Shown piece after piece: positions 2,856 to 64,000 of a stretch of 64,000 nt of DNA. Where the stretch lies: contig BTVJ01000043.1 of assembly GCA_045863395.1 (NCBI GenBank), positions 1 to 64,000 on the forward strand. Direction: 5' to 3'. Source of the stretch: Myxococcales bacterium. Lineage in GTDB: Bacteria; Myxococcota_A; UBA9042; JABWCM01; BTVJ01. The notes under the pieces were generated by a model that was not told the origin of the DNA, did no database searches, and worked only from the letters and a program-made list of their open reading frames with translations. How positions within the stretch are numbered: the stretch's first letter is position 1; each line of letters opens with the position of its first letter. The position numbers and the translations under genes were made by a program.

Positions 2856-5576
2856 TCAAGGGACAGGGGCGCGGTACACGACGGCGTGCTGGGCTCCGTC
2901 CGACCACTCGCGGCCGACCACCCACAAGGTCCCGTCGTGGACCCACACCCCCGTCAAGGCGTTGTTGCCGTGGACGTCCTCGCCCACCTGGCAGGGGGGA
3001 CACTCGTGGGTGGACAGCACCGCCAGGTGGTCCGGGCTGAGGGCGCCACCACTCGCAGGCGCGGCCATCAGCACCAGCTCCGCGCGGTCCAGCGAGCCCA
3101 TGTAGGTGTGGCGCGTGCCGACGACCCACGCGCGCCCATGCGCCACGTGGACCGACTCGAGATCGTATGCGACCGCGAATCCACCGAGCTGCGGACCAGA
3201 CTCCCACCCGGCGGCGTCTCGACGCGCCCAGAGCCCCTGGGTACCCACCGCCCACACGCTGTCGAGGTCCGCGCCATCGACCGCCAGGAGCTTGTCACCG
3301 GGGGTGGAATCCAGCGTGCTCGCGAGCGCCCACTGCGGCATGAGCCCCGCGGACTCGAAGATCAGGTTGTCCGAGTCGCCGGGGAGCTTGTTGCCGACCA
3401 GGACGTGCTTGACCACCGTCGCCGGGGTGCAGCCCTCGCAGGGCGCCGGCAGGCCCCAGAGGCCGGCTGGCCCCACGCCCGCGACGGGGAGCGCAGACAG
3501 GTCCTCGCAGTACCACTTGAAGCCGCCCGCGGGGTTGGCCTCCCGGGCGCAGCGCGCCAGGAAGGGGGACGTACCGTTGATGTTGAGGCCCCCGACGAGC
3601 CACTGCTCCGTGGGGGTGGCGAGCCCCGGGGGGGCCGCCAGGGTGGTGCCCCACACGTCGGTCAGGTCGCCCATGCCAGGGACGGTCTTGAGGGCGGCCC
3701 ACAGGCCGGGCGCCCCGTCCCAGGTGGTCCCGGTCTGGAAGCCGACGCGCCCCGCCGTGCCGACCACGGCGCGGTGGCGGATCGCCCGGTACACCGAGTC
3801 CGTCCGCTCGCTGCCGGTCATGACGGAGGGAGCCTTGTCGGCTGACAGAGCCACCACGAACGAGGTGGTCGTCCCGAAGCCGTCCACCCGCCAGCCCGCC
3901 GCCACAGGCAGCCCCTGCGACGCGGTGACGTCGACCAGCGCCGTCGCCGCCGTCTTGGGGGTGGTCACGGGGGTCCACAGCGTCCGTGTGAACCCGACGC
4001 ACGCGCCGCTCAGGCAGACGTCGGGACCCGTGGCGTCGTCCCCGTCGTCACAGGGGGCGAGATCGGCCTGACCGGCGCAGTCGCCGCACAGATCGAAGGG
4101 GCCGGGCGAGCAAGCCCCGTCTGTGCAGGCGTCTCCGCCGGTGCAAGGGTCGCCGTCGTCGCAGGGCGTGCCCGTGCCTGCGGTGAACTTGCAGCCCCCG
4201 TCCGGGAGGCACGTGTCGAGGGTGCACGGCTCCCCGTCGTCGCAGCTCGTGACGGTCGCCGGCACGCAGGCGCCGCCGGAGCAGGCCTCGTCGAGGGTGC
4301 ACGGATCCCCGTCGTCGCACGCCCCGCCCGCGGGCGTATGGACGCACCCGGTCATGGGGTCGCAGGAGTCGGCGGTGCAGGGGTTGGCGTCGTCGCAGGG
4401 CGTGGCGCCAGCGGGCAGGCAGACGCCGTCCTTGCAGGTGTCGCCGGTGGTGCAGGCGTCGCCGTCATCGCAGGGCTGCGCCCAGGTGGGCACGTGGACG
4501 CACTTGCCGATGGCGCAGCCGTCGTCCGTGCAGACCGTCCCGTCGTCGCAGTCCTTCTTGGGACCGGGCTTGCAGGCGCCGCCTGCGCAGGCGTCGTCCT
4601 CCGTGCACAGGTCGCCGTCATCGCAGGGGCCCTCCACGGGCGGGTGCGTGCAGAGCCCGGCGGGCGTACACACGTCGCCCGTGCAGGGGTCGCCGCCGTC
4701 GCAGGGGATGGTCGTGGCGGGGACGCACGCGCCGCCCAGGCACGTCTCCCCCTGGGTGCAGGTGTTCCCGTCATCGCACGCGGCGCCGTCGGGGAGCACG
4801 TCCGCTACGCACCCGATGCCCGGCGCGCAGGAGCCGACGCCGCACGGCCCGACCTCGCCCGCGCAGTCCGGGATGGTCGCCGCGTCCGGCTCGCACAGAC
4901 CATCCACGCACACGAGGGCGCCGGTGCAGGGGTCCGTGTCCTCGTAGGCCGCACAGTCCGCGTCCACCGCGCAGACACAGCCGTTGCCCACGCCGACGCA
5001 GGCGCCGCCGTCGCAGGTGTCCACCGTCGTGCAGGGGTTGCCGTCATCGCAGGGGTCGCTGTTGTCGACGGTCGCGCACTTCCCCCCGTCACAGAGGTCC
5101 GCCGTACAGGGGTTGCCGTCGTCACAGTCGAGGGGCGCGCCGCCACATGCCCCTGCGGCACACTGGTCGCCGACCGTGCACGGGTCGCCGTCGTCGCAGA
5201 GATCGCCGTCATCGGCCGGACCGGCCACGCAGGCGCCGTTCAGGCACCGCGCGGCCTCACAGGTCCCAACCACGACGTGGTCGCAGTCGGCGTCCACCCC
5301 ACAGGTGGCCCCGTCGTTGGCATCGAGTGCGTCCGTGGCGTCCGAGCCGCCGTCCCCGGGACCCGCATCGGTGTCCGCCGCGCCCGCGTCGGGTGCCGCG
5401 TCGGGCGCAGTGTCTCCCCCCGCATCCAGCGTGTCGACGCCGACGACGTCGGCCGGGACGTAGCCCCCACCCCCTGGGTCAAAGGTGACCCCCGGTGTCG
5501 CATCGTCCGCGGGACAGGCCACCAGACCCAGCAGGGTCAGATGGAGGGCGAGCTGAAGGAAGGGACGTGATCGCAT
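2856..5576 (-). CDS. Lipoprotein with CDDGDPCT-type Cys-rich repeats and a probable beta-propeller C-terminal domain
   Basis: Signal with lipobox-like LGLVAC, D/A-rich linker, many CDDG[DN]xCT units, then a beta-rich domain with DVWG/SVWAVG/LWVVG motifs. ATG 5576 has a GGAG RBS. Confidence 0.8.
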   Translation of the reverse strand: MRSRPFLQLALHLTLLGLVACPADDATPGVTFDPGGGGYVPADVVGVDTLDAGGDTAPDAAPDAGAADTDAGPGDGGSDATDALDANDGATCGVDADCDHVVVGTCEAARCLNGACVAGPADDGDLCDDGDPCTVGDQCAAGACGGAPLDCDDGNPCTADLCDGGKCATVDNSDPCDDGNPCTTVDTCDGGACVGVGNGCVCAVDADCAAYEDTDPCTGALVCVDGLCEPDAATIPDCAGEVGPCGVGSCAPGIGCVADVLPDGAACDDGNTCTQGETCLGGACVPATTIPCDGGDPCTGDVCTPAGLCTHPPVEGPCDDGDLCTEDDACAGGACKPGPKKDCDDGTVCTDDGCAIGKCVHVPTWAQPCDDGDACTTGDTCKDGVCLPAGATPCDDANPCTADSCDPMTGCVHTPAGGACDDGDPCTLDEACSGGACVPATVTSCDDGEPCTLDTCLPDGGCKFTAGTGTPCDDGDPCTGGDACTDGACSPGPFDLCGDCAGQADLAPCDDGDDATGPDVCLSGACVGFTRTLWTPVTTPKTAATALVDVTASQGLPVAAGWRVDGFGTTTSFVVALSADKAPSVMTGSERTDSVYRAIRHRAVVGTAGRVGFQTGTTWDGAPGLWAALKTVPGMGDLTDVWGTTLAAPPGLATPTEQWLVGGLNINGTSPFLARCAREANPAGGFKWYCEDLSALPVAGVGPAGLWGLPAPCEGCTPATVVKHVLVGNKLPGDSDNLIFESAGLMPQWALASTLDSTPGDKLLAVDGADLDSVWAVGTQGLWARRDAAGWESGPQLGGFAVAYDLESVHVAHGRAWVVGTRHTYMGSLDRAELVLMAAPASGGALSPDHLAVLSTHECPPCQVGEDVHGNNALTGVWVHDGTLWVVGREWSDGAQHAVVYRAPVP

Positions 5577-5604
5577 GGGGCGGGCTCCGAGCATGGCGTG
5601 GTCC

Positions 5605-5632
5605 ACCATATCACGGCGCCGCTACCATGCAA
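5605..5632 (-). promoter_or_regulatory. Putative sigma70 promoter of the Cys-rich lipoprotein cluster
   Basis: Minus strand TTGCAT-N16-TATGGT with a TGn extended -10, ~30 nt upstream of ATG 5576. Confidence 0.4.
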
Positions 5633-5945: not shown

Positions 5946-6881
5946 TCACTCCTGCAGGAAGGCCCCCACGGCGCTGAAGGTGAGGGCCGCCGACAGCTCG
6001 GCGCACTCCCCGTCGGCTCCCCGCACCAGGTCCCCTGCGCCGTTGAGCAGCATCTCGACGGCAGCGAGCACGCCGAAGTCCGCCGAGTCCGCCACCGTCG
6101 CGATGGCCATGAGGTCCGCGATGGGGACGCCGCCGCCGAGGAGGCCGTCCTCCAGGCCGCCGTCCCAGGTGACCCGGGCCCGCAGGACGGCGTTGCGCAC
6201 CGTCAGCTCGTAGTGCACCCCGAAGACCACGATGGGAAGGCGGGTCTCGAAGGGGCCGGCGTGCAGCACACCCCCGGTGACGTGCGCGCCGGGGAGCGGG
6301 CTGTCGGGATAGGCCGGGTTCGGGCGGAAGGTCTGGCTGGCGAGCAGGAGCCCGTCCGTGCCGAGGAGCGGCTTGCCCTGCCCCACCCGCAAGGTCGCGG
6401 TCACCGAGTCGTCCTCCGTGATGTCGTCCAGCCCCTCGAGCTGGATCATCAGGAGCAGACCACCGTCCTCGATGGCCCCCTGGATGAGCCCCTCCACCGC
6501 ACCGATGCCCACGAGATCGAAGAGCGGCACCAGGAGCGCGAGCTGGTTGTCGACGCCCGCAAGCCCGTCCGGGGACATGAGATCCCCGTGCCCACACGTG
6601 CTCTCGTCGCCCTTGGCGCTGACCTTGCCGTCCAGGTCGAAGCCCCGCGCGACCCCTGGGGACGCCTCACGCGTGAAGCCCATGGTGTCGATGGCGGCGA
6701 CCCGGACGGCGGCGACGGGAGCCGGCGAGGCGGCGTCCCCTTCCGCCAAGGCCCCCCCCGGTGGGGGCCACCCCGCCGCGGAGACCGTACCGAGGTTCGG
6801 CGCCTCGGCAACCGCCGAGGGCTCCCCAGGGTCGGTCAGGCAGCCCGCGAGAAGCAGGATCCAGGCGAATCTCACGGTCAT
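5946..6881 (-). CDS. Hypothetical lipoprotein associated with the DUF1552/DUF1592 pair
   Basis: Lipobox LLAGC; GFDLDG...GVDNQL segment; ATGA overlap with the DUF1552 gene. Confidence 0.75.
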   Translation of the reverse strand: MTVRFAWILLLAGCLTDPGEPSAVAEAPNLGTVSAAGWPPPGGALAEGDAASPAPVAAVRVAAIDTMGFTREASPGVARGFDLDGKVSAKGDESTCGHGDLMSPDGLAGVDNQLALLVPLFDLVGIGAVEGLIQGAIEDGGLLLMIQLEGLDDITEDDSVTATLRVGQGKPLLGTDGLLLASQTFRPNPAYPDSPLPGAHVTGGVLHAGPFETRLPIVVFGVHYELTVRNAVLRARVTWDGGLEDGLLGGGVPIADLMAIATVADSADFGVLAAVEMLLNGAGDLVRGADGECAELSAALTFSAVGAFLQE

Positions 6882-8182
6882 GCCTCGATCACCCCCAGCC
6901 CGTCCTTGGTGTGGCCCTCGGCGTCACCGATCTCGGCGAGGTCCAACCCGAGGGCGCGGCAGAGGGTGAGCAGCACCTTGCTCGCGTTCTCGCTGGACGC
7001 GGAGCGATAGTGCACGCCGGTCCGCAGGCGCCCGCCCGCCGAGCCCGCGAGCACGATGGGGAAGTCCTCCGGCGAGTGGGTCTTGCCCAGGCTGACGTCC
7101 GAGGTGCCGAGCAGGACGCAGTGGTCGAGCAGGGTGCCGTCTCCCTCTTTCACCTTGGCGAGAGCCGCGACCTGGGCGGCAAAGGCCTCCATGCACTGGA
7201 GCGTGATCTTGTGGACCTCGGGCTGCTCCCCCGGCTCGTCGTGGGTGAGCTGGTGGTGACCCGCCGTGGCGCCCTGGAAGAGCAGGTTGTTGACCGGGTG
7301 CGTGAACCAGTTGCTGAACACCCGGGTCTGGTCGCAGGCGAGGGCCATGGCGGCGATCTCGCTCATGATGGCGTTCTTCTCCGCGAGCTGGGGGCGCCCG
7401 TCGATGTCGGGGTACTCGCTCACCGGCACGGTCGGCAAGGCGCACGCGGCGAGGTTCGGCGGGTCCTCCTCCAGCTTGGCGAGGCGCTTCTCCAGGGTGC
7501 GCACGCCGTCCAGGTGGGCCTCCAGGCGCTGCTTGTCCTCCGCGCCCAGCGTCCCCTGCAGCCGCAGGAGGTCGTCGCCCACCGCGTCGAGGACGCTGCG
7601 CTTCAGGGCGAGGCGCGGGTCCACCTTGGGCTCGTCGCCGGGGAGGGTGAAGCTGCCGCCGAAGACCCGCTCGAAGAAGGCGATGGGCGAGGTCTCCGCC
7701 GGGTTTCGGCTGTTGGGGCCGTTGTGACTCATGCCGTCGCTGGACTTGGTGCCCAGCTCCAGCGAGGCGAAGCGGGTCTCCTGGCCGATGACGCCCGCGA
7801 TGATCTGATCGATGCTGGGACCCGAGAAGGTGTAGTCGCCGCCGTTCTTGATGATGGGTCGCCCGGACAGGAAGCCCGCCGCGGTGGCGAAGTGGGGCTC
7901 CACGTTGGGGACGCCCACGCGCATGCCTGAGACGACCGTGACCGCGTCCTTGAAGGGCGCGAGGGGGGCGAGCTGCTCGGAGAGCTCCCAGGCGGTGCCC
8001 TGCGCAGTCGGGACCCAGCGGCTCGGGAGGATGCCGTTGCCCCAGAAGAACAGGCCGAAGCGGCGGGGGAAGCCGCCCGGGGAGGCGGCGCGTGCGGCCC
8101 GCTCGAAGAGCTCCAGCCACGGCAGGCCCACAGTGACGGCCGCGCCCCCCAGAATCCCCCTGAGCAGCGTGCGCCGGTTCAT
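6878..8182 (-). CDS. DUF1552 (HXXSHH-like) family protein with a Tat-like signal
   Basis: MNRRTLLRG...VGLPWLE, FFWGNG, SIDQIIA, SLELG, ALACDQTRV, HHQLTHD, GTLLDH motifs. Confidence 0.88.
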   Translation of the reverse strand: MNRRTLLRGILGGAAVTVGLPWLELFERAARAASPGGFPRRFGLFFWGNGILPSRWVPTAQGTAWELSEQLAPLAPFKDAVTVVSGMRVGVPNVEPHFATAAGFLSGRPIIKNGGDYTFSGPSIDQIIAGVIGQETRFASLELGTKSSDGMSHNGPNSRNPAETSPIAFFERVFGGSFTLPGDEPKVDPRLALKRSVLDAVGDDLLRLQGTLGAEDKQRLEAHLDGVRTLEKRLAKLEEDPPNLAACALPTVPVSEYPDIDGRPQLAEKNAIMSEIAAMALACDQTRVFSNWFTHPVNNLLFQGATAGHHQLTHDEPGEQPEVHKITLQCMEAFAAQVAALAKVKEGDGTLLDHCVLLGTSDVSLGKTHSPEDFPIVLAGSAGGRLRTGVHYRSASSENASKVLLTLCRALGLDLAEIGDAEGHTKDGLGVIEA

Positions 8183-9777
8183 GGCGCCTCCCCGACGCGC
8201 CGGAAGGCCGGGCTGGTCGCGATGTCGAAGAGCAGGCGCTCGAAGCGACCCTCGGCGGCGAAGGACGTGGCGATGGCGTCGAGCTGGGCGCGCTCGCCCG
8301 GGGTCTCCTCCCGATTGACCGCGTAGCGCCAGGCCGTGCGCGCGATGCAGGGCATGAGGTCCGGGTGGGCGGCGACCGCCTCGACGAGGGTGCGGGCACC
8401 GTCGAACGGGACGCCGTCCAGCTCGCCGCTCGGGTCGATGGGGGCACCGTTGTCCAGAAGGCGGAAGCGGCCGAGCCCGTCGAACACCTCGAAGCCGTAG
8501 CCCGGGGGGTCCATCATGTCGTGGCAGGACGCGCAGGCCGGGTCCAGGCGGTGCGCCTCCAGGCGGTCCCGCAGGGTCAGCGCGTCGGGCGAGGGCTCGG
8601 GGATGGCCGTGTTCAGCTCGGACGGCGGCGACGGCATGGTCTGGCAGAGGATCCGCTGGCGCAGCGCGACCCCCCGCTTGGTGGCCGACGACGAGGTCGG
8701 GTGCGCGTGGGGCGCCAGGAACGAGACGTGCCCGAGGATGCCGGCGCGGGCCCCCTCGCTCGGGAGCTCCACGAGGCCGAAGCCGTCCGGGTCCGGCGCG
8801 GGGACATCGTAGATGGCGGCGAGGCGGGGCGTGACATAGGTCTCGCGGGTCGTGAACAGCTCCCGCACGTCCGTGCGGCGGTCGAAGATCACGCGCTCGA
8901 CCAGGCGCAGGGTCTCTTCCCGGGCGGCCGGCCCGAGGTCCGCCGAGAACTGCTCGAAGACGGTCGGGTCCTTGCCGAGCTGGTCGAGCTCCGCGAGGCC
9001 GAGCCAGTCGGCGAAGAAGGCCCGCACCCCCTGGCGCGTGCGGGGGTCCTTCAGCATTCCCTCGACGACGGACGGCAGCGCGTCGGTGAGGTCACCGCGC
9101 GCCGCCGCCTCCAGGAGCGCGTCGTCGGGGACCGTGTTCCAGAGCAGCAGGGCGAGGCGCGCCGCCATCTCGTAGCCGGTGTAGCGGGGAGGCCCACCAT
9201 CGGGGGAGGGCTCGCCCAGCTCCACGCGGTACAGGAAGTGGGGGGACGCGAGCAGGGTCGCGAGCACCAGCTCTACTCCCCCGTCGCCGCCGAGGGCGGA
9301 CTGGGCCTGCTCGCCGATGGTCGCCAGCGTCGCGACCTCCTCGTCTGAGAGAGGGCGCCGCCACAGGCGCAGACCCCACGCCTTGACGATCGATGCGATG
9401 CAGCCGTCCGTCGCGGGGTCACACGTCCGCACGCGCGCTCGCACCGCGACGTTGGCGACCGCCTGGGAGGCCAGCGACAAGGCGGCGTCGAAGCTCTGCT
9501 CCACGCCACGCTTGGAGAGGGTGGCCACCGTGGCGCCGACGGCGACCAGGCCGCCCGAGGGCGTGTCCGGCTCCAGGCCCGCCGGGACGACCAGCTCGGG
9601 GCCCAGGGTGTCGCGGACGGCGTTGGTCACCTGGACGCGGCTCAGGCGCGCGAGGCGCGGCGGCGCGGGCGTGACCTGGATGCCGGTCACGACGTCCTGC
9701 GCCCCGCCGCCGAGGGGGACGCTGGCCTCGGGGGCGCAGGCGGCCAGGACCAGCAGCAGAGCGAGGCGCGACGTCAT
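8179..9777 (-). CDS. DUF1592/DUF1588/DUF1585-type protein with a CxxCH heme motif
   Basis: LLASPHFLYRVE, EMAARLALLLWNTVPD, SSATKRG, CASCH, PGYGFEVFDGLGRFR; lipobox-like VLAAC; start chosen at ATG 9777. Confidence 0.88.
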   Translation of the reverse strand: MTSRLALLLVLAACAPEASVPLGGGAQDVVTGIQVTPAPPRLARLSRVQVTNAVRDTLGPELVVPAGLEPDTPSGGLVAVGATVATLSKRGVEQSFDAALSLASQAVANVAVRARVRTCDPATDGCIASIVKAWGLRLWRRPLSDEEVATLATIGEQAQSALGGDGGVELVLATLLASPHFLYRVELGEPSPDGGPPRYTGYEMAARLALLLWNTVPDDALLEAAARGDLTDALPSVVEGMLKDPRTRQGVRAFFADWLGLAELDQLGKDPTVFEQFSADLGPAAREETLRLVERVIFDRRTDVRELFTTRETYVTPRLAAIYDVPAPDPDGFGLVELPSEGARAGILGHVSFLAPHAHPTSSSATKRGVALRQRILCQTMPSPPSELNTAIPEPSPDALTLRDRLEAHRLDPACASCHDMMDPPGYGFEVFDGLGRFRLLDNGAPIDPSGELDGVPFDGARTLVEAVAAHPDLMPCIARTAWRYAVNREETPGERAQLDAIATSFAAEGRFERLLFDIATSPAFRRVGEAP

Positions 9778-10071
9778 CGGGCGGCGGTTCTCCGGTGGTG
9801 GGGACCAGTGGAAGGTAGAGCAGGCTCGTGCTGGATTCAACGCCGAACGCGGGTCGAGTCGCGAGAGACGGCAACCGGGCGGGCGACGCGGCGCGCAGGC
9901 AGCGACAGTCACATTTGATATCAACAGCTTGGAAGAACTTGAGAGGAATCGTCGCCGCCCCTGTCAGATCCGCGGGGCCCGCCTCGAAGGGAGCGGGTGG
10001 GGAGAGTGGTGGCGACCCGACGCCATGACCCCCGACACCCCGCGAAGAGACGAACAGAGGGAGAACGACCG

Positions 10072-10923
10072 ATGACGCTGGACCTGATCGCTGTGGTCGA
10101 CCGGAGGAGGAACCAGACGCTGTGCAGCCGCGTCCGCGCGAGGCGGATCCGGCGGAGCCGCCGCGCGAGCGTGGTACAGGAGCGGTCCCGGCGCGACGTG
10201 CGCTGGGCTGAGGCCGGCGGGACCCTGGCGGGCGTGGAGAGGCTGGCCACGCTGGGGGCGCTCGCGGCGGACGTGGGGCACGAGCTGAACAACGTGGCCT
10301 GCGTGCTGCTCAACGCCATCGAGATGACGCGGGAGGCGGCTGCCGGCGGGCGGCCCGCCGACCCGCAGGACCTGGAGGCCCTGGACTACGCCTGCCGCCA
10401 CGTGGTCGCGCACGGGCGCAACCTGCTGCGGCTGGGGTCTCCCGCCACGAGCACCGGGGTGACGGATCTGGCTGAGGCCGCGGAGGCGACCGTGAAGGCG
10501 CTCCAGATGACGGGGCGGCGCAGACACGCACAGGTGCGGGTGGAGGTGGAGGGCCCACTGCGAGTGGCGATGCCCCGGATGCACGTGGAGCAGGTCCTGA
10601 TGAACCTGCTGCTCAACGCCCTCGACGCCCATGAGGAGTCCCGATCCCAGAGCCCCATGGTTCGAGTCGCGGCGGCGGCGCGGGACGGCCGGGTGACCTG
10701 CACGGTCGAGGACAACGGCCCTGGCATGTGCAACGAGGTCGCCGCGCGCGCCTTCGACGTCTACTTCACGACCAAGCGAGACGGCCGGGGGACGGGCCTG
10801 GGGCTGCCCCTGGTGCGCAAGATGGTCGAGGACGCTGGCGGCGCGGTGGCGCTCTGGACACGCGAGGGAGCCGGCACGCGGATCACGCTGGATCTGCCAG
10901 CCCTGGCCGAGCAACGGCGATGA
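10072..10923 (+). CDS. Histidine kinase (HisKA + HATPase) with no obvious sensor domain
   Basis: H-box ADVGHELNN, N-box EQVLMNLLLNALDA, G1 VEDNGPGM, F-box AFDVYFTTK, G2 GTGLGL; GAGGGAG RBS. Confidence 0.88.
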   Translation: MTLDLIAVVDRRRNQTLCSRVRARRIRRSRRASVVQERSRRDVRWAEAGGTLAGVERLATLGALAADVGHELNNVACVLLNAIEMTREAAAGGRPADPQDLEALDYACRHVVAHGRNLLRLGSPATSTGVTDLAEAAEATVKALQMTGRRRHAQVRVEVEGPLRVAMPRMHVEQVLMNLLLNALDAHEESRSQSPMVRVAAAARDGRVTCTVEDNGPGMCNEVAARAFDVYFTTKRDGRGTGLGLPLVRKMVEDAGGAVALWTREGAGTRITLDLPALAEQRR

Positions 10924-10998
10924 GGGCCCGAAATGCACGTTCTTGCTGGCAGTTGGGGCTTGAAGTACAGTCGCGCGCTCGACGGAGCGAACTGCCCC

Positions 10999-11649
10999 AT
11001 GACCGAAGCCCTCACGCCCGCGCTGTTCTCGAGAGCCGTGTTGGAGCGGGAGGAGCGGGCCATGGCGCGCGTCGTCGAGGCGCTGACCCCGGTCCTGCAC
11101 GCGCGGGTGGCGTCCATCCTGCTCCGGTGTCGCCGCGCCATGGGGGGGCGGGTCGTGCGCCAGGAGGTGGAGGACCTCACCCAGGACGTCTTCGCGCTGC
11201 TCTTCTCGGATGGTGGGAAGCGCCTGCTGGCCTGGCGGCCGGAGCGCGGGACGCCTGGCGCCTGGTTCGGGCTGCTGGCGGAGCGCTTCGTCCTGGACAC
11301 GCTGCGGAGCCGGCGCAGGAGCCCGTTCACCGACAGCCCGACCGACGACGTGGAGCTGGAGACGGAGCCGGAGCACCCGACGCAGGAGCGGCGGGTGGTG
11401 TCCCACAACCTGCTGGCGCTGCTCGCGGAGCGCCTGGAGGCCCAGCTCAACGAGCGGGATCGGCAGCTCTTTCGGCTCCTGTACGTGGAGGAGCTCTCGG
11501 ACGACGAGGTGCAGGCGAGGCTCGGGCTCAGCCAGGACGCGCTCTACCAGGCGCGGCGGCGGCTGAAGCAGAGGGTGGCCGCGGTGGTGAGCACGATGCC
11601 CAAGACCGGCGAGAACCAGAGGGCGAGGGTGCCAGGAGCGACGCCATGA
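10999..11649 (+). CDS. ECF-type sigma-70 factor
   Basis: Region 2 EVEDLTQDVFALLF...LDTLRSRRR; region 4 LNERDRQLFRLLYVEELSDDEVQARLGLSQDALYQARRRLK. Confidence 0.88.
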   Translation: MTEALTPALFSRAVLEREERAMARVVEALTPVLHARVASILLRCRRAMGGRVVRQEVEDLTQDVFALLFSDGGKRLLAWRPERGTPGAWFGLLAERFVLDTLRSRRRSPFTDSPTDDVELETEPEHPTQERRVVSHNLLALLAERLEAQLNERDRQLFRLLYVEELSDDEVQARLGLSQDALYQARRRLKQRVAAVVSTMPKTGENQRARVPGATP

Positions 11650-12446
11650 GCGAGATGACCGACGAGCAGTACCTGCGTGCGCTCGGGTCCGCCGTGCGAG
11701 GCGCGCGCCAGGAGGGCGATGAGGACGACCCGCGCTGGGAGCGCCTCGCGGCAGGCACCCTCAGCGCCGAGGAGGACGCGGCGCTGCGAGAGCTGGCGCA
11801 AGCCGACCCCGCCATCGCGGAGGCCCATGAGGCATTCCGGCCTTTGGGGCTGGACTTCCAGGCGGCGGTCATGGCGAGCTGGCGTGAGACCCCGCGGCGA
11901 GGGGCGCTGCGGGTCCTCATGCCTTGGAGGGAGCACCGGGTCCGGCAGGTCGCGCCGTGGCCGCTCGGGCGCCGCCGGGCCGCGTGGACCGGGGTGGCAG
12001 CCCTGGCCGCCGCCGTCGCGTGGCTCGTGCTGTCACCGGCGACGCTGCCCCCCCTGCCCTCCTACGGGATCGAGGTGCGAGGCGGCGAGGTCGCCGCCCG
12101 AGACGTCGCCGCAGCGAGCGGGGCTCTGGAGCTGGTGCCCGACTCCCTCGTGCACGTGACCGTGCGTCCCGCGACGGCGGTGGACGGGCCCGTGGGCGCT
12201 GTAGCGTTCGCCCTCGGGGACGGGGGGCCTCGCGCGGTGGCGCAGCCGACCGTCGGGGCTACCGGAGTCGTCACGCTGGAGGGGACCGCGGGGGAGGTGC
12301 TCGGGCTCCCGCCCGGCGCGTGGGAGCTGGTGGTGCTCGTGGGGCGACCCGGTGTTCTCCCCACCGACCCTGCCGCTGGCCAGCGGCTGCTCTCGGACCC
12401 GGGCGACGTCCAGGTGTTCAGGCAGCGGATCCTGATGGGACGATGA
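11646..12446 (+). CDS. Putative single-TM anti-sigma factor
   Basis: ATGA-coupled to the sigma gene; N-terminal domain (WERLAAGTLSAEE), TM helix WTGVAALAAAVAWLVLS, then a beta-rich C-terminal domain. Confidence 0.65.
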   Translation: MSEMTDEQYLRALGSAVRGARQEGDEDDPRWERLAAGTLSAEEDAALRELAQADPAIAEAHEAFRPLGLDFQAAVMASWRETPRRGALRVLMPWREHRVRQVAPWPLGRRRAAWTGVAALAAAVAWLVLSPATLPPLPSYGIEVRGGEVAARDVAAASGALELVPDSLVHVTVRPATAVDGPVGAVAFALGDGGPRAVAQPTVGATGVVTLEGTAGEVLGLPPGAWELVVLVGRPGVLPTDPAAGQRLLSDPGDVQVFRQRILMGR

Positions 12447-15070
12447 CGCGACCTGTCCTCTTGCTGGTGTTGGGCTTGGCAGCCTGCCGGTCGACTCCGG
12501 CCGAGCCCCCCGCGCCCCTCCGGATCGAGGTGTCCGGGTGCGCCGACGTGCGACGATCGGGCGAGTGCCTGCTCCCGTCGTCGGGAGGGCGGCTCTGCCT
12601 GTGGGCAGACGTCCCCGCCGGGGAGGAGGTCCAGGTCGAGGGGGGCGCTCGGGTGGCTTGCGGCGCGAGCTGCTGCTTCGCGGTGTCCGGCGGCGCCTCG
12701 AGGCTGACCGTGACCGCCGCGGGTCCTCGCCCCCGGCAGGCGATCGTGGCGCTTGGTCCGGTAGCGCCGTGCCCCGCCGCGGACACGGCGCGCGCGCTCC
12801 GAGGCGAGGGACGCACGGAGGAGGCCTTGGCGGGGCTCGACGGGCCGATGGGCTCGGACGCGTGCGCGGCGGAGGTGGCGGGCCTGAGGGCGCGCCTGCT
12901 GCTCGACGAGGGGGAGACCGAGGAGGGGATCGGGGCCTTCCGGGCCGCCCTCGCCATGCGCAAGGAGGCCGGAAGCGTCGCCGGGTTCGTCAACGACTCC
13001 CTCGCCCTGGCCCACACCCTCACCTACCGCGTGCGTCGCAGCGCCGAGGCCCGGGAGGTCATCGCTGCGGCGGCCCAGGCGGCTGGGCCGTACCACGAGG
13101 GGATCGCGCGCGTCCCGTACTACGAGGGCCGGCTGCTGCTGGAGCTTGGCGATCTGCGCGGCGCCCTGGACCGCCTGCGCGAGGCCGACCTGCGGGCGGG
13201 TCGCCTCGGCCTTGCGACCTTGAGGGGCCACGCCCGGGAGGCGATGGCGGAGGCGCTCCAGGTGCTGGGCCGCCCCTCCGAGGCCGCGGCGCTCCTCGAC
13301 ACCCTCGCGACGGGCGACCGGCCCGACCGGGATCGCGCCATGGCCCTGAACAACATCGGGTGGCTACGGCTGCTCCAGGCGGAGGCCGAGGGACGGGGTG
13401 CGGACCCGCTGCCGCCGCTGCGGGAGGCGGCGCGGCTCGCGGCTGCCTGCGGCGACGCGGGGTTGCTCGCCAACGTGCTGCTCAACCAGGCGCTCGCGGC
13501 ACTTCAGCGCGGCGACGTGGTCGGGGCTGCGGCGCTTGCTGCGAGAGCGCGGTCCACACAGCCGGCGCCCGACGACTACGTGGCCGAGTGGATGCTGGAC
13601 GTCGATGGGCGGGTGGCGCTCCGCTCGGGGCGGGCCGAGGAGGCGCTCGGCCACTTCGAGGCCCTCGCGGGGCGGGCCGGCGGCTCCTCCAACGGGCGGT
13701 GGCGGGCGGAGCTTGGGCGAGGACGCTCGCTTCAGGCCCTCGGCCGAGCGGTGGAGGCCGCGGCCGCCTACGAACGCGCCGAGGGGCTCCTGGACGAGCT
13801 GGCGCTCCTCGTGCCCCTCGGGGAGGGCCGCACCACCTTCCTCGGCGGGCACGACCTTGGGGCCAGGCTGCTCGTGGACCTGCTCGTGGAGCTGGAGCAG
13901 CCGGAACAGGCCCTTCGCGCTGCGCGACGCTCGGCCTCCCGGCTGGTGGCGGCGGTGCAGCGCATCGACCGCCTCACGCACCTGGGGGCCGCAGGGCGGG
14001 CGGCCTTCGAGCGCGACCTGGATGTCTACCGGCGAGCCCGCGCCGAGCTGGACGCCCTGCGGCGGAGCGCCCGCGAGGCCACCCAGGAGGAGCTGGTCAG
14101 CCTGCGGGCCCGGGAGGCCACGCTGGAGGCCGAGGCGCGGAGCACCCTGGATCGCGCCTTCGCGACCGCTGGGGTGAGGGCGCGCGAGGAGAGGCCGCCG
14201 GCGGAGGGAGAAGTGCTCCTGGTGTTCCACCCTGCGGGCGATGGCCTCGTGGGTCTCGCCGCCGGCGCCGAGACGAAGGCGGTGCGCCTGAGCGTGATGC
14301 CGGGCGATGGGCCGGTGGCCCTGTCCCGCAAGCTCCTCGAGCCGCTTCGGGCCCAGATCGCCGGCGCGCGACGGCTCCGCATCATCGCCGCAGGCCCGCT
14401 GCGCGAGGTGGACTTCCACGCGCTGCCGTGGGACGGAGGCGTCCTCGGCGAGCACGTCCCCGTCGCCTACGCGGTCGACACGGGCGCCCCTGCCACGCGA
14501 GGGGGCTTCGGGGCCCTGGTCGTGGCGGACCCGAGCGGCAACCTGCGGAGCGCCCGCAAGGAGGGCGACACCGTCGCGACCGCGCTCCGCGCGCTGGGCC
14601 CGGTCCGCGTGCTGGCGGGGAGCGCCGCGACGCGGGGCGCGATGGTGGAGGGGCTCCCCGGGGCGGCGCTGCTCCACTACGCCGGCCACGCGGAGGCGGA
14701 GGGCCGGGACGGCTTCGGCAGCGCGCTGGTCCTGGCCGGCGAGGATCGCCTGACCGTCGGCGACGTGCTCGCCCTCCCCGCGGTGCCGCAGGTCGTGGTG
14801 CTCGCCGCGTGTCGGAGCGGCCGGGACGACGCTGCTGGCCGCATCCAGAGCCTGGGCCTCGCGCAGGCCTTCGTCGCCGCAGGCGCGGGGGCCGTGATCG
14901 CCGCCACTCGCCCCGTCGACGACGCGTGCGGCGCGCTGCTGACGGCGAGCCTGTATGAGCACCCCCTCACGCCCGGCAGCGCCCCGGACCGCCTCGCCGA
15001 GGCGCAGGCGGCGCTGCGAACCGCTGCACCCCACTGCGACGGCGCGAGCTTCCGCGCCCTCATGCCCTGA
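12443..15070 (+). CDS. TPR-CHAT (caspase-like) protease lipoprotein
   Basis: Lipobox LGLAAC; TPR-like helices (ALNNIGWLRL, LLANVLLNQA); CHAT motifs VDFHALPW, ADPSGNL, LHYAGHA (His), VVLAACRSG (Cys), SLGLAQAF. Confidence 0.9.
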   Translation: MTRPVLLLVLGLAACRSTPAEPPAPLRIEVSGCADVRRSGECLLPSSGGRLCLWADVPAGEEVQVEGGARVACGASCCFAVSGGASRLTVTAAGPRPRQAIVALGPVAPCPAADTARALRGEGRTEEALAGLDGPMGSDACAAEVAGLRARLLLDEGETEEGIGAFRAALAMRKEAGSVAGFVNDSLALAHTLTYRVRRSAEAREVIAAAAQAAGPYHEGIARVPYYEGRLLLELGDLRGALDRLREADLRAGRLGLATLRGHAREAMAEALQVLGRPSEAAALLDTLATGDRPDRDRAMALNNIGWLRLLQAEAEGRGADPLPPLREAARLAAACGDAGLLANVLLNQALAALQRGDVVGAAALAARARSTQPAPDDYVAEWMLDVDGRVALRSGRAEEALGHFEALAGRAGGSSNGRWRAELGRGRSLQALGRAVEAAAAYERAEGLLDELALLVPLGEGRTTFLGGHDLGARLLVDLLVELEQPEQALRAARRSASRLVAAVQRIDRLTHLGAAGRAAFERDLDVYRRARAELDALRRSAREATQEELVSLRAREATLEAEARSTLDRAFATAGVRAREERPPAEGEVLLVFHPAGDGLVGLAAGAETKAVRLSVMPGDGPVALSRKLLEPLRAQIAGARRLRIIAAGPLREVDFHALPWDGGVLGEHVPVAYAVDTGAPATRGGFGALVVADPSGNLRSARKEGDTVATALRALGPVRVLAGSAATRGAMVEGLPGAALLHYAGHAEAEGRDGFGSALVLAGEDRLTVGDVLALPAVPQVVVLAACRSGRDDAAGRIQSLGLAQAFVAAGAGAVIAATRPVDDACGALLTASLYEHPLTPGSAPDRLAEAQAALRTAAPHCDGASFRALMP

Positions 15071-15088
15071 CGGCACAAGGAGTCACGA

Positions 15089-17062
15089 ATGTTCAGACCA
15101 GACCTCTCCAGCCGCGCCGCCCTGCTCGGAGCGCTGGCGCTGACCGCGCTGCTCGGGTCCTGCCGAGGCTGCGACCGCCCGGACCCGGCCCAGCCGCAGC
15201 CGCCGGTCAAGGGGACGGACGCGGGCACGTCGAAGGCTCCCCCCACCACCAAGGAGCGCGTCGGTTCCGCCCCGGACGAGCTGCCGGTGCGCCGCTGGGT
15301 GGCGAACCTGCCCGTGGAGGGAGGGCCACCGGCGTGCCCGCAGCCCACGAAGGGATCTTGGAAGGTGAGCGAGCTGATGCCCGCCGTGCCCGCCGACCTG
15401 GGCCTCACCCCGCCGGAGGGAGGGCGCCGCTTCTGCGCCTACGAGTGGGCGGGCAAGGGGGTGGACGCCAAGGAGGTCGCGGCGATGCTGCCGCCGGAGG
15501 CGCAGGCCGCACCGGACCCGCCAGTGATCACGGGGTTGGGGCTCGATGCGGCCAAGGAGCAGCTCCGCCTCGTGAGCCTCCACCAGAACCGGGGGGTCAC
15601 TCTGGAGGGGGCGCAGGCGAGCCCGGTGGTGGTCGCGGTGGTGGACAGCGCACCCCGCAACGCGGCGCAGCCGGTGGGATCGCTCACGGTGGGCCGGAGC
15701 CACCACGGTACGACGGTGGGGCTCGCCATCCACCAGATGGTGTGCCCGAAGCTGCCGGTGGGCGACCAGGGCTGCCCGGTGAGGCTGTCGCCTCAGCTCG
15801 CCCTCGACTCCGTGATCGAGGGCGGCGAGGTGCGGGAGGAGGCCGGGGGCGGCAACGTGGGCACGCTGTCCAGCGTCGCTCGCGCGGTCGTCCAAGGTGT
15901 GCTCGACTGGGCCGCCTTCCGCAAGACGAGCCCCGAGGCGCGGCTGGTGGTGAACCTGTCCATCGGCTGGGACCCCGCCATGGTGTCCGACGAGGCGACC
16001 TCCGCGGGCATGGCGGCCGTCCTCACCGCGCTGCGCTTCGCCGAGCGGAACGGCGCCCTGATCGTGGCCGCCGCAGGGAACCGCTCGGGTGGCGCCGCTG
16101 AGTCTGCGGGGCCCATGTTCCCGGCCCGCTGGGAGGCGACCCAGAAGTCAACGGGCTGCGCTCCGGGAGCGCAGGGTGCCTGCCCTCCACTGCTCTACGC
16201 GGTCGCAGGCGTGGACGACGACGGCCACCCGCTGACCAACGTCAGGGCCGAGGGCATCCCCCGCCTCGCGGCCAACGGCCTCCAGGTGACCGTGAGCCCA
16301 ACCCAGCTCGGAGGAGGGACGTCTCCGGCGCTGACGGGGTCGTCCATGGCGGCCGCCGCCGTCTCGGGGGCCGCTGCGGCCGTCCTCGCGGCCCGCTCCG
16401 GCATCACGCGCGAAGAGGTGATCGGGGTGCTCTACGAGAGCGGCAAGCCCACCGGGCTCACCGCCGACTTCTGCCCCGGCACCCTCAGCGGCTGCAAGAC
16501 CTCGGTCCGGATGGTGGGACCAGGGGGAGCCGATCTCCCGCCGTCCGTACCCAAGGCCCCGCCGCGTAGTGCGGTCGCCGAGGAGCTGGCGACCGTGACG
16601 CCCGACGAGGTGGCCACGGTCACGGTTCAGGTGGCAGTGATCGACGCCCCTGCGTGCGGCGAGGGGTACCGGCTGGCGGCGGCGGATGGCGAGGAGGCCA
16701 CGTGCGCCGAGGTCGCGGCCTTCCGCGCTCCGCGGGCGGTGCTGGTCCACCCGCAGCCGGGGTCTCCGGGGTGCGACGTCTGCACCCTCTTCCCAGAGGG
16801 CCAGACCACGCGACGTCTCTGGTACCAGGCGAACAAGGAGCTGACCGTCTCCAAGCTCGTGGTGTCGAGCCTCGTGCTGCACGACTCGGTCAAGCGCACC
16901 AGCACCGTGGTGCGCCTGGGTGACAAGTCCGTGGAGCCGGGGCGGCTGCTGGTCATCGAGGGCCTGCAGGTCGGGGCGATCCCCTTCGACCGGGCGGAGG
17001 TCGTCGCGACCTTCGAGCAGGCGGGGACCAAGGGCGTCATCGTGGACCAGCTCGCGTACTGA
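15089..17062 (+). CDS. S8 subtilisin-like serine peptidase, probable lipoprotein
   Basis: Catalytic motifs VAVVDS (Asp), HHGTTV (His), VNLSIG, AAAGN (oxyanion Asn), GSSMAAAAVSG (Ser); signal ending LLGSC. Confidence 0.85.
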   Translation: MFRPDLSSRAALLGALALTALLGSCRGCDRPDPAQPQPPVKGTDAGTSKAPPTTKERVGSAPDELPVRRWVANLPVEGGPPACPQPTKGSWKVSELMPAVPADLGLTPPEGGRRFCAYEWAGKGVDAKEVAAMLPPEAQAAPDPPVITGLGLDAAKEQLRLVSLHQNRGVTLEGAQASPVVVAVVDSAPRNAAQPVGSLTVGRSHHGTTVGLAIHQMVCPKLPVGDQGCPVRLSPQLALDSVIEGGEVREEAGGGNVGTLSSVARAVVQGVLDWAAFRKTSPEARLVVNLSIGWDPAMVSDEATSAGMAAVLTALRFAERNGALIVAAAGNRSGGAAESAGPMFPARWEATQKSTGCAPGAQGACPPLLYAVAGVDDDGHPLTNVRAEGIPRLAANGLQVTVSPTQLGGGTSPALTGSSMAAAAVSGAAAAVLAARSGITREEVIGVLYESGKPTGLTADFCPGTLSGCKTSVRMVGPGGADLPPSVPKAPPRSAVAEELATVTPDEVATVTVQVAVIDAPACGEGYRLAAADGEEATCAEVAAFRAPRAVLVHPQPGSPGCDVCTLFPEGQTTRRLWYQANKELTVSKLVVSSLVLHDSVKRTSTVVRLGDKSVEPGRLLVIEGLQVGAIPFDRAEVVATFEQAGTKGVIVDQLAY

Positions 17063-17088
17063 CGGCGTGCTCCCCTCCGCGCGCCCCG

Positions 17089-17772
17089 TCAGAACAGGGA
17101 GCCCTGCCGCGGCCTGGGTGCCACGGCCAAGGGCTCGTCGAAGCGGGGGTTGCCCACCCGGGGGTCCACGTCGTGGGCCGCCATGAGCTTCGGGTCCAGC
17201 GGCACCAGCAGAGCCTCCGCGCCCCCTGGCGGGAGCTCCCCCGGCGCCAACCATGCGTCACGCTGCTCAGGGGGCAGGATCACGGGCATGCGGTCGTGGA
17301 CCGGGCGCACCAGGTCGTTGGCCGCCGTGGTCAGGATGGTGCAGGACTCCACGACCGCGCCGTCGGGGCTGGTCCAGGTCTCCCACAGCCCGGCGAAGGT
17401 CAATACGCTGTCGTCCGCCAGGTGGAACCACACGGGCTGTTTGGAGGCGCCCTCCTTGCGCCACTCGAAGAAGCCGTCCGCGACGACGAGGCCCCGGCGA
17501 CGCTTGAAGGCCGCCCGGAAGGCGGGCTTCTCCTGAGCGGTCTCCGCGCGGGCGTTGATCAGGCTCGCGGCGATCTTCCGGTCCTTGGCCCAGGATGGCA
17601 CGAGGCCCCAGGTGAGCAGATCGAGGCGGCGCGCCTCCCCGACCAGCCGCACGAGCGGGACACCCTGGGTCGGGGCGATGTTGTACCGTGGCGTCAGGAG
17701 AGGGACCTCCGCGAGGCCCAGCTCCGCGGCGACCATCTCTGGGGTAGCGGTCAGGGTGAAGCGTCCGCACAT
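17089..17772 (-). CDS. SRAP / HMCES-YedK family abasic-site protection protein
   Basis: MCGRF N-terminus, RYNIAPTQ, WGLVP, INARAET, DGFFEW, HDRMPVIL. Confidence 0.95.
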   Translation of the reverse strand: MCGRFTLTATPEMVAAELGLAEVPLLTPRYNIAPTQGVPLVRLVGEARRLDLLTWGLVPSWAKDRKIAASLINARAETAQEKPAFRAAFKRRRGLVVADGFFEWRKEGASKQPVWFHLADDSVLTFAGLWETWTSPDGAVVESCTILTTAANDLVRPVHDRMPVILPPEQRDAWLAPGELPPGGAEALLVPLDPKLMAAHDVDPRVGNPRFDEPLAVAPRPRQGSLF

Positions 17773-17955
17773 GCTGCCTCCTCGGATCGTCGAGACTGGA
17801 CCAGCACGGAGCGGCGTGCAAGGGAGCTCGGCTGCTGGCGTCGCTCGGGGGCGGGTCTACCGGACGCACCGGCGATCAGTAGCGTGCGGCGCAGGATCCC
17901 GCCCGGGGGTTCTGCTACCATGGCGCTCCCTCGTCGGCCGCGGAGGAGTTGCGCC

Positions 17956-19086
17956 ATGACCGTCAGATACTTCGCCACCTGCCCGAAGGGCATCGAGCCC
18001 ATGCTGCGGGACGAGTGCCGCGAGGCCGGACTGCGGCGCGTCAAGCAGGCGCGAGGCGGGGTCCACTTCGAGGGGACGGCCAGGGACGGGATGCGCGCCT
18101 GCCTGTGGCTCCGGACCGCCCACCGGGTCCTCTGGCCGCTCGGGTCCTTCGCCTGCCCCGACACCGAGGCGCTGTACGCGGGCATCGTCGCCCTGCCTTG
18201 GGAGCAGCACCTGACGCCCCGGCACACCCTGGCGATCACGGCGCTCGGCACCAACGAGGCGCTGCGACACACGGGCTTCATCGCCCAGCGGTCGAAGGAC
18301 GCCATCGTGGACCGCCTGCGTGACCGGGCGGGCGGACGCCCCAGCGTGGAGCTGCACGAGCCGGACGTGCGCATCGTCGTCCACCTGGACCGGACCCTGG
18401 CGTCGGTCTCCTTGGACCTGAGCGGTGACGGACTCCACAGGCGCGGCTGGCGCGCTGCGAGCGTGGAGGCCCCGCTGCGTGAGACGCTCGCCGCCGCCAT
18501 CGTGCGCGCGACCGGCTGGGACCGCGTCATGCCCCTGGTAGACCCACTGTGTGGCGGCGCGACCATCCCCATCGAGGCCGCGCTGCTCGCGCGGCGGCTG
18601 GCGCCGGGCCTGGACCGGGCCCACGGCTTCCTGCGCTGGCCGACCTTCGGGGACGTGGAGAAGGCGGCCTGGCGCGAACTGTGCGATGAAGCACGGGCCG
18701 CCGCCCTCCCCGCGGCCCCCGCCGTGATCATGGGGGTGGACCGGGATCCCGAAGCCATGGAGGCCGCTCGCAGGAACGTGCGGGCCGCGGGCGTGGAGGG
18801 CGACGTGGAGCTCTCGGTAGGAGACGGCGCCAACCTGATGCTCCCGCAGGCACCCGGCCTCATCGTCACGAACCCGCCCTACGGAGAGCGCCTGGGCCGC
18901 CCCGGCCGCCCCATGCAGGACTTCTTCCGCCGCCTGGGCACGGGCTTCGCGCGCTACAAGGGCTACACGGCCTGGATCCTCAGCGGCAACGAGGAGTTCC
19001 CCCGCCACTTCGGCCTCCGCTGGACAAACCGCCTCCCCCTCTGGAACGGCCCCCTCCCCTGCAACCTCTTCCGCTACGAGCTGTAG
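17956..19086 (+). CDS. THUMP-domain class I SAM-dependent RNA methyltransferase (RlmL-like)
   Basis: YFATCPKGIE, SKDAIVD, LDLSGDGLHRRGWR, APLRETLAAA, DPLCGGATIPIEAA, VTNPPYGERL; GGAGGAG RBS. Confidence 0.9.
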   Translation: MTVRYFATCPKGIEPMLRDECREAGLRRVKQARGGVHFEGTARDGMRACLWLRTAHRVLWPLGSFACPDTEALYAGIVALPWEQHLTPRHTLAITALGTNEALRHTGFIAQRSKDAIVDRLRDRAGGRPSVELHEPDVRIVVHLDRTLASVSLDLSGDGLHRRGWRAASVEAPLRETLAAAIVRATGWDRVMPLVDPLCGGATIPIEAALLARRLAPGLDRAHGFLRWPTFGDVEKAAWRELCDEARAAALPAAPAVIMGVDRDPEAMEAARRNVRAAGVEGDVELSVGDGANLMLPQAPGLIVTNPPYGERLGRPGRPMQDFFRRLGTGFARYKGYTAWILSGNEEFPRHFGLRWTNRLPLWNGPLPCNLFRYEL

Positions 19087-35910: not shown

Positions 35911-35938
35911 CCGGGTCAGCGCACATCCGGAGATCCCC

Positions 35939-59030: not shown

Positions 59031-59034
<4 letters not shown>
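56902..59034 (-). CDS. brxHI: Lhr-like DEAH helicase (BREX BrxHI)
   Basis: APTAGGKTEA, PIKAL, TTPESLE, DEIH, SAT, TSTLELGIDVG, QRMGRTGR; GTGA-coupled to brxD. Confidence 0.85.
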
Positions 59035-60331
<1,297 letters not shown>

Positions 60332-60344
<13 letters not shown>

Positions 60345-63220: not shown

Positions 63221-64000
63221 GCGTCCTCCTCCTCGGGCGACAGCTCGGCCTCGATGGCGTCGATGGTCGGCAGGACCGACGCAAGCTCGCCGGGCAGCGC
63301 CCGCGTCAGCTCGTACTCGGACACGCCGATGGGCTTGTCCAGCCCGCGCAACGCGTACTCCGCCAGGACGCGCTTGTTCTCCTGGCACAGGATGAGCCCG
63401 ATGGAGGGACCATCGGTCGGGTGCCGCAGCGTATCGTCCACGAGGTTCAGGTAGAGGTTCATCTTGCCGGCGTACTCCGCGATGAACGGGCCCACCTTGA
63501 GCTCCACCACCACGAAGCAGCGCAGCTTCAGGTGGTAGAAGAGCAGATCGACGAAGAACTCGTCGTCCTCCAGGGCGAGCCGTACCTGCCTGCCCACGAA
63601 CGCGAAGCCGACACCCAGCTCCAGCAGGAAGCGCTCGAGGTGTGCCAGGAGCCCCGCTTCGAGCTCGCGCTCACGAAAGCCCGCCTCGAGGCTCAGGAAG
63701 TCGAAGACGTACGGGTCCTTCAGCGCCTGCTGAGCGAGGTCCGAGTGCGGCGACGGGAGGCTCCGCGCGAAGTTGGTGACCGCCGCCCCCTGGCGGCGAT
63801 GCGCCCCGGTCTCCAGCATCGAGGCGAGGACGTGGCGGCTCCAGCCCTCGACGGCGCAGCGCTGCATGTACCAGAGGCGCACCGCGGCGTCAGAGGCCCG
63901 TTGAAGGAGCAGGATGTTGTGACCCCAGGGCAGGTCGAGGGCGAGCCGAGCACAGGCGGCGCGTGGGTCGGCTTCCGGTTGGGCCACGGTCTGTGGCCCG
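63217..64000 (-). CDS. DUF1016/YhcG-family PD-(D/E)XK nuclease-like protein, 5' truncated by the window
   Basis: LPWGHN, LKDPYVFDFL, ERFLLELGVGFAFVGRQ, FVDLLFYH, VVELK, GKMNLY, IGLILC, PIGVSEY; ATGA overlap with pglZ. Confidence 0.92.
   Translation of the reverse strand, partial: GPQTVAQPEADPRAACARLALDLPWGHNILLLQRASDAAVRLWYMQRCAVEGWSRHVLASMLETGAHRRQGAAVTNFARSLPSPHSDLAQQALKDPYVFDFLSLEAGFRERELEAGLLAHLERFLLELGVGFAFVGRQVRLALEDDEFFVDLLFYHLKLRCFVVVELKVGPFIAEYAGKMNLYLNLVDDTLRHPTDGPSIGLILCQENKRVLAEYALRGLDKPIGVSEYELTRALPGELASVLPTIDAIEAELSPEEEDA

Follow-up and report, generated by a model that had tools for sequence, protein, structure and literature searches.

An exported TPR-CHAT protease cassette in a Myxococcales bacterium as a proposed split, lipoprotein version of the DdvA-type sigma factor switch

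The closest described system to the one considered here is DdvA of Myxococcus xanthus, in which an anti-sigma domain, a membrane helix and a periplasmic tetratricopeptide repeat (TPR)-CHAT protease are fused in one protein (PMC11506125; PMC6061681; PDB 8rot, 8rw5), and whose truncated forms are reported to be RseP substrates (PMC11506125). A second is the ECF54 group, where an extracytoplasmic function (ECF) sigma gene lies near subtilase and TPR-CHAT genes and proteolytic control has been proposed (PMC7826278; PMC8999054). In a third, Craspase and SAVED-CHAT/PCaspase, an allosterically gated CHAT protease is reported to cut a sigma inhibitor or a second protease. Here we describe a cassette of four genes in a window of 64,000 nucleotides (contig BTVJ01000043.1, positions 1 to 64,000, assembly GCA_045863395.1) from a Myxococcales bacterium, encoding an ECF-type sigma factor, an anti-sigma-like membrane protein, an exported TPR-CHAT protease and an exported S8 subtilase with a C-terminal tail domain (Table 1). 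The cassette is a split, lipoprotein version of the DdvA-type switch, and its true partner is likely the tail domain rather than the subtilase as a protease.

As in DdvA and its sigma factor DdvS, an ECF sigma, a single-pass anti-sigma and a periplasmic TPR-CHAT with His/Cys come together, with release by CHAT and then RseP as the proposed outcome; the last gene of the ddvA operon, too, encodes a putative peptidase (PMC11506125). Unlike DdvA, the TPR-CHAT protein is here a separate lipoprotein, unfused in all 31 loci that hold the four genes, the anti-sigma has no CHCC zinc site but an immunoglobulin (Ig)-like outer domain of its own, and a subtilase/tail gene is linked. DdvA is tied to an island of CRISPR and cyclic-oligonucleotide-based antiphage signalling system (CBASS) genes, whereas the nearest flanking genes scanned here include no CRISPR-Cas or CBASS components. 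The fusion in DdvA serves as a Rosetta stone, supporting the view that a split CHAT acts on a split anti-sigma.

ECF54 shares the subtilase and TPR-CHAT genes in the sigma neighbourhood (PMC7826278). The members of ECF54, however, are Actinobacteria (100%), with a carboxypeptidase-regulatory-like protein encoded at +1; no anti-sigma is named in the available text (PMC7826278), and the predicted promoter is GTATCAG / CTCC, against TGTCAG-N17-CGAA and a membrane anti-sigma here. The TGTCAG/CGAA pair matches none of the six TGTCA passages in the available part of the PMC7826278 supplement. Like the Csx29-Csx30-CASP-sigma system of Craspase (PMC10028731; PMC9729208) and SAVED-CHAT/PCaspase, the cassette joins a CHAT protease to a sigma pathway, but those systems act in the cytoplasm, where CRISPR RNA or cyclic oligoadenylate gates them, whereas the CHAT protein here is exported and the cassette contains no Cas7-11, SAVED or Csx30-like part. 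The earlier premise that the cytoplasm is the only place where TPR-CHAT/anti-sigma logic is known is not supported, since DdvA is periplasmic and structurally solved (PMC11506125) and ECF54 has the same gene types (PMC7826278). Literature searches, with subscription papers outside their coverage, turned up DdvA, CASP and ECF reviews and no study of the exported split form or of the tail domain.

The coordinates of the open reading frames (ORFs) confirm four co-oriented genes, the first three coupled by ATGA overlaps (11646-11649 and 12443-12446) and the fourth following after 18 nt, with AAGGAG ahead of its ATG. An upstream kinase ORF and a promoter-like motif had been overlooked. The host genome is 8.77 Mb and 97% complete, and holds the cassette once.

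Table 1. Features of the cassette and its upstream region (positions in the window).
Feature	Position	Strand	Details
Predicted promoter TGTCAG-N17-CGAA	9962-9988	+	motif search over module loci
Sensor-less histidine kinase ORF	10072-10923	+	HisKA-type H box + HATPase
ECF-type sigma gene	10999-11649	+	216 aa; alternative start 10933
Anti-sigma-like gene (gene 2)	11646-12446	+	266 aa
Arg152 codon of anti-sigma-like protein	12099-12101	+	candidate CHAT cut site
TPR-CHAT gene	12443-15070	+	875 aa; lipoprotein cysteine protease
S8 subtilase gene	15089-17062	+	657 aa; lipoprotein
Subtilase C-terminal tail domain	16745-17059	+	PQP-x4-CxxC, Ig-like beta sandwich

We searched a sample of 401 genomes of the phylum with a CHAT profile (E ≤ 1e-40, two candidates scored per genome) and a subtilase profile (E ≤ 1e-30, three scored). 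The CHAT subfamily was found in 39 genomes and the S8 subfamily in 27, all within those 39; no probability is attached to this linkage because kin genomes are not independent. For 35 of the 47 subtilase matches a listed CHAT was no more than 3 kb away; beside the other 12 stood CHAT in seven cases, sigma and/or anti-sigma in two (at contig ends) and nothing in three, so that 42 of the 47 adjoin CHAT overall. At E ≤ 1e-55 we counted 64 CHAT loci, five of them fetched via their subtilase, with sigma in 40, anti-sigma in 49, subtilase in 47, tail in 53 and all four genes in 31; without those five (n = 59) the counts are 37, 44, 42, 48 and 28. The profiles used were built from the same loci, and divergent sigmas drop below the cut-off. 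Six of the 64 had no partner, three of them at contig ends. The presence of all four genes in 28 of the 59 loci found through CHAT, and the 12 gene orders and orientations seen among the 31 four-gene loci, show that the genes recur together elsewhere. No CRISPR neighbours were found either, which agrees with the CRISPR independence claimed for the cassette: 104 flanking proteins from 61 loci (nearest gene on each side) gave eight PADLOC matches at E ≤ 1e-10, none of them Cas or CBASS, and a defence-island reading was rejected on the lack of such neighbours.

The subtilase matches PF00082 (E 2e-11), has the lipobox LGSC25 and the residues D186/H206/N331/S419, and is laid out as prodomain, catalytic domain, Cys-rich linker and tail domain. 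Its AlphaFold model (pLDDT 82.2, pTM 0.85) finds pro-subtilisin E as best Foldseek match (E 1e-12), and the Asp/His/Ser triad, oxyanion Asn, prodomain and subtilisin fold of the S8 class are all present. The catalytic residues are intact in 150 of 150 homologues, in keeping with the first reading of the gene. The enzyme falls in a large, dedicated subfamily of 865 clusters (E ≤ 1e-10), and 117 of 150 members end in a domain of about 105 residues opening with PQP-x(2-6)-CxxC. This domain is Ig-like by Atlas structure search (TM 0.66), with no Pfam family common to 46 tail-domain members. At L021:3335-7909 a single CHAT gene is followed by a tandem pair of subtilase copies whose tails differ, and at L048:4737-6789 the subtilase lies in two frames and its tail reads PAP, not PQP.

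A tail profile built from 113 subtilase tails only was run on the 228 ORFs of the first loci. Its seven best non-subtilase rows held five small exported proteins beside CHAT, representing every subtilase-less locus of that set (E 3e-6, 9e-5, 0.002, 0.003 and 0.09), along with a subtilase-tail fragment and one unrelated ORF at E 0.014. Three free tails were added later, in L028 (E 0.05), L033 (E 0.04; 424 ORFs) and L045 (by eye), the last two keeping a prodomain, so that eight loci in total have a free tail beside CHAT without the catalytic domain. Five of the eight sit in genomes in which no family subtilase was found (G244, 96% complete; G383, 98%; G349, 96%; G412; and G414, a complete chromosome), and four of those five loci also carry sigma and anti-sigma; the remaining three genomes have a family subtilase elsewhere. 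Further free tail proteins are P0160 and P0161. In L059, L064, L065, L078 and L079 the tail is joined to a different, more canonical subtilase, and L078 was rejected as a free tail on account of the divergent subtilase attached. On a CHAT tree built by a quick method, the state of having a tail without the subtilase needs five changes, only one of them forced by strongly supported branches, and repeated loss of the subtilase with the tail kept is likely. Since eight loci keep only its tail, comparison of the loci indicates that the catalytic domain is dispensable and that the tail is the constant fourth part of the cassette. Metagenome scans with the subtilase (P0004) and with a free tail protein returned no relative.

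The motif at the head of the tail differs between the two settings, with [P/S/G]QP in 37 of 38 subtilase-linked tails vs none of eight free tails (one keeps QP). The C-terminus of the prodomain, V-x-P-[L/Q/A/M], resembles this motif, which may be a self-recognition site of the subtilase, either cut or bound as a pseudo-substrate. Some subtilisins are reported to cut after XPQ (PMC8053163).

The first gene clears TIGR02937 (52.6 bits vs a cut-off of 42.9), as expected of an ECF-type sigma; its Pfam sigma70 matches stay below cut-off. The second protein has no Pfam match but shows a single hydrophobic helix (window peak 1.89), which in the AlphaFold model (pLDDT 83.7) spans residues 110-129 between a helical N-domain and an Ig-like outer domain (136-266), so the single membrane segment and outer domain read from the sequence earlier are borne out. 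Fold-search matches cover residues 136-266 only, and the best of them, filamin repeats (Z 8.3), is a generic Ig match. Of 43 homologues, 41 have the membrane helix, and in 39 basic residues are more numerous ahead of it. Like class I membrane anti-sigmas, the protein combines a cytoplasmic helical bundle, one membrane helix, an outer domain and a gene position at +1 of the sigma. The HxxxCxxC motif of zinc-binding anti-sigma (ZAS) domains is absent from the window's protein; it occurs in two of 43 aligned homologues and one further N-terminus (L056), and zf-HC2 is found in 18% of members of a related Atlas cluster. With these three homologues and that close cluster, the N-domain can probably be assigned to the class I anti-sigma domains, in a zinc-less form.

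In 42 of the 43 homologues an Arg lies 11-13 residues past a conserved Tyr; no non-overlapping window of three residues among those tested exceeded 22 of 43. The next residue is G in 18, S in 14, A in seven, D in two and N in one (G/S/A in 39 of 42). In the window's protein this is Arg152, in an outer-domain loop modelled with pLDDT 60, and we regard it as a candidate CHAT cut site. Cleavage at this residue would break the Ig domain in its first strand, and what remains would be a stub like the one cleared by RseP in truncated DdvA. No conserved Arg comparable to this one precedes the tail of the subtilase.

The TPR-CHAT protein consists of a lipobox (LAAC15, with Cys15), a small N-domain, TPRs and a CHAT domain (PF12770, E 2e-28) carrying H749 and C790. 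Both residues are kept in 41 of 41 homologues, which agrees with the intact His/Cys first noted. Lipoboxes occur in 33 of 42 homologues and another hydrophobic anchor in eight; the export of both proteases, proposed earlier, is supported, with signal peptides and lipoboxes called by our own sequence pattern. The best solved structural match of CHAT is DdvA (E 2.8e-16). A PDB search that used this domain as a single sequence gave nothing relevant. The TPRs of the protease are similar to repeats that bind peptides, among them those of Pins/LGN and kinesin light chain, as would suit a protein ligand. Two acids are conserved in CHAT: E707 (38 Glu and one Asp in 41) follows the first strand, and D827 (40 of 41) lies in the loop behind the catalytic Cys. 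MALT1 and gingipain hold Arg-binding acids in the equivalent regions (PMC4357240), and E707 and D827 may lie where a P1 Arg would bind. At the D827 column Leu-cutting Csx29 has Ser and DdvA has Asp.

CHAT genes are in pieces in L052, L060, L067 and L069, from real decay or assembly error. A conserved exported protein of 232-251 aa is convergent with CHAT in one genus (L001:10541-11239, L004:1269-1979, L025:2909-3664). At L011:6096-12397 a sigma gene and a 247-aa ORF accompany two CHAT genes of another subfamily near phage-tail-like genes (labels by eye), and the host genome has two further CHAT-domain genes outside this subfamily (G000:C54:41966-42802 and G000:C32:50932-51747).

Regions upstream of subtilase/tail genes are enriched in GTCA-N-GAA words, and the strict form TGTCAG-N17-CGAA occurs at 18 sites in 69 loci, vs 0-3 at each other spacing from 8 to 26, always adjoining a gene start. 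The sites precede S8/tail genes (eight), anti-sigma (four), sigma (one), CHAT (one), flanking exported genes (three) and the kinase here (one), the S8/tail share being partly by construction, since it was the subtilase set that yielded the motif. The window's copy is intergenic and is the host genome's best site under a matrix trained without it (16 sites score ≥17). It stands 110 nt ahead of the kinase ORF, which runs into the sigma gene, so kinase, sigma, anti-sigma, CHAT and subtilase probably form one autoregulated operon. We name no wider regulon because the strict motif is not enriched genome-wide (seven matches at N17 vs 0-6 at other spacings); scans of 9700-17400 found neither a sigma-70 promoter nor an intrinsic terminator. 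The kinase matches PF02518 (E 1.5e-21) and NCBIfam kinase models from residue ~50 onward, and is lineage-specific, none of the modules at the other loci compared having a close homologue next to it. In four metatranscriptome runs, from two sludge studies, there are contigs that span every junction between the four genes and cover the genes themselves. Neighbouring genes are covered as well and one contig crosses the convergent boundary of S8 and SRAP, so that carry-over of DNA is possible; the low cover over 9777-10053 is given no weight.

From these observations we infer cleavage, binding and signal alike, and give an even chance to the cassette as a whole being a regulated-proteolysis switch in which CHAT cuts the anti-sigma to free sigma and the tail feeds back. 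The anti-sigma-like protein very likely holds sigma at the membrane. Once activated, the periplasmic TPR-CHAT would probably act in trans as its site-1 protease, with a cut after Arg152 slightly favoured, and RseP, which the host genome encodes, would complete the cleavage and release sigma. The freed sigma is likely to transcribe TGTCAG-N17-CGAA promoters, here that of the five-gene operon that begins with the kinase, and would re-express the cassette, subtilase/tail most of all. Whether the subtilase is both an output of sigma and the carrier that frees the tail, by removing its own prodomain and cutting or binding its own V-x-P-Q-P motif, we judge evenly balanced. Feedback of the tail on TPR-CHAT we put just short of even. 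In such feedback the tail as an activating ligand is possible, if doubtful, and the tail as an inhibitor quite unlikely; the activator ranks higher because the TPR-CHAT proteases studied so far rest inactive and need an allosteric trigger.

Several observations weigh against this switch. The window's own anti-sigma has Asp after Arg152, a minority residue (2 of 42). Arg specificity of CHAT rests on topology, since the separase-type position, four residues past D827, has no conserved acid in the family; the S1 aspartate of separase corresponds to Csx29 K670 (PMC9729208). The strict promoter is present in only 12 of 69 loci. The free-tail matches are weak (E 3e-6 to 0.09, 0.04-0.05 and, for L045, by eye), and subtilisins usually fail to cut before a proline, the residue that follows the proposed Q. 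Divergence of the tail tracks that of the TPRs (Spearman 0.31) no better than that of sigma (0.42; 89 pairs, 14 loci), so this mirror-tree test gave no signal of tail-TPR co-variation; sigma, anti-sigma and CHAT divergences track one another (0.43-0.74). Eight loci (L028, L029, L030, L031, L032, L036, L051 and L052) hold CHAT with a subtilase or free tail and no sigma or anti-sigma within 5 kb; several of the genomes concerned have a complete cassette at another place, and the promoter motif accompanies four of these pairs. Even for DdvA, the activity of the CHAT has yet to be proven, and mutating its catalytic residues produced no phenotype in the absence of a signal (PMC11506125).

The best-surviving alternative, which we consider somewhat unlikely, keeps the CHAT switch but treats subtilase and tail as pure outputs without feedback, with CHAT sensing some other protein, for example from phage, prey or a competitor. 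The S8/tail gene is indeed the commonest promoter target, diverges fastest and co-varies least with the other three, and Ig-like tails are common on subtilases. A mere accessory domain, though, should not persist free beside CHAT after loss of the protease, as it does in eight loci, and duplicated CHAT and S8 pairs without sigma (eight loci) would be unexpected. A two-protease cascade like that of the earlier note, with CHAT and subtilase both acting on the pathway by proteolysis and the subtilase activating CHAT or clipping the anti-sigma, fares worse and is improbable. Both proteases are exported and catalytically intact, the subtilase is present in 42 of the 59 CHAT-anchored loci, and a cytoplasmic precedent with a sigma exists in SAVED-CHAT/PCaspase (bioRxiv 10.1101/2023.06.23.546230), but the five free-tail genomes without a family subtilase argue against it, though an unrelated protease could stand in. 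What survives of that proposal is a plausible CHAT-dependent release of sigma in the envelope; the subtilase as a required second protease on the anti-sigma is not supported, as its catalytic domain is absent from eight loci that keep the tail. That CHAT instead matures or releases the subtilase/tail, with the anti-sigma Arg a docking site and signalling by binding, is the least probable reading: CHAT adjoins S8/tail in 51 of 59 loci vs anti-sigma in 44 of 59, and orphan CHAT and S8 pairs exist, but the Arg lies in a variable, flexible loop before a small residue, as in cut sites, and the tail lacks a comparable one.

Around the cassette, divergent from the predicted promoter, lie DUF1592/DUF1588-type and DUF1552 (HXXSHH) genes and a lipoprotein gene (5946-9777, minus strand). 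Downstream (17089-19086), a SRAP gene convergent with the subtilase is followed by a THUMP/RlmL-type methyltransferase gene, at whose start a weaker match, CGTCAG-N17-CGAA, is found (17961-17987). Further on, 28984-44830 (plus strand) encodes two very large exported proteins of 2308 and 2959 aa, the latter with Cys-rich repeats like those of a 917-aa protein at 2856-5609. Helicase-like, ATPase-like and PglZ-like ORFs at 56902-63999 (minus strand) resemble, judging by eye, a BREX-type defence cluster.

A more specific form of the switch with tail feedback, in which the tail, fast-evolving and disulphide-bonded, is matured and released by the subtilase to act as an envelope protein pheromone that docks in the TPR groove of a caspase-like receptor-protease cognate to it, this protease cuts the anti-sigma at one Arg and the freed sigma makes more precursor, is unlikely. 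If true, the tail would be the first activating ligand for an envelope TPR-CHAT, additional CHAT and subtilase pairs in one genome would act as further receptor-ligand channels feeding the same sigma, and bacteria would have a eukaryote-like propeptide/receptor-protease signal. The cassette is common, with the CHAT subfamily in about one in ten of the phylum genomes sampled. Its split form offers separable soluble parts, a predicted cut site at Arg152, a predicted reporter promoter and, in the tail, a candidate trigger or brake. Cutting of an anti-sigma by a periplasmic CHAT is the step left open by the work on DdvA, and the split cassette makes it directly testable in vitro.

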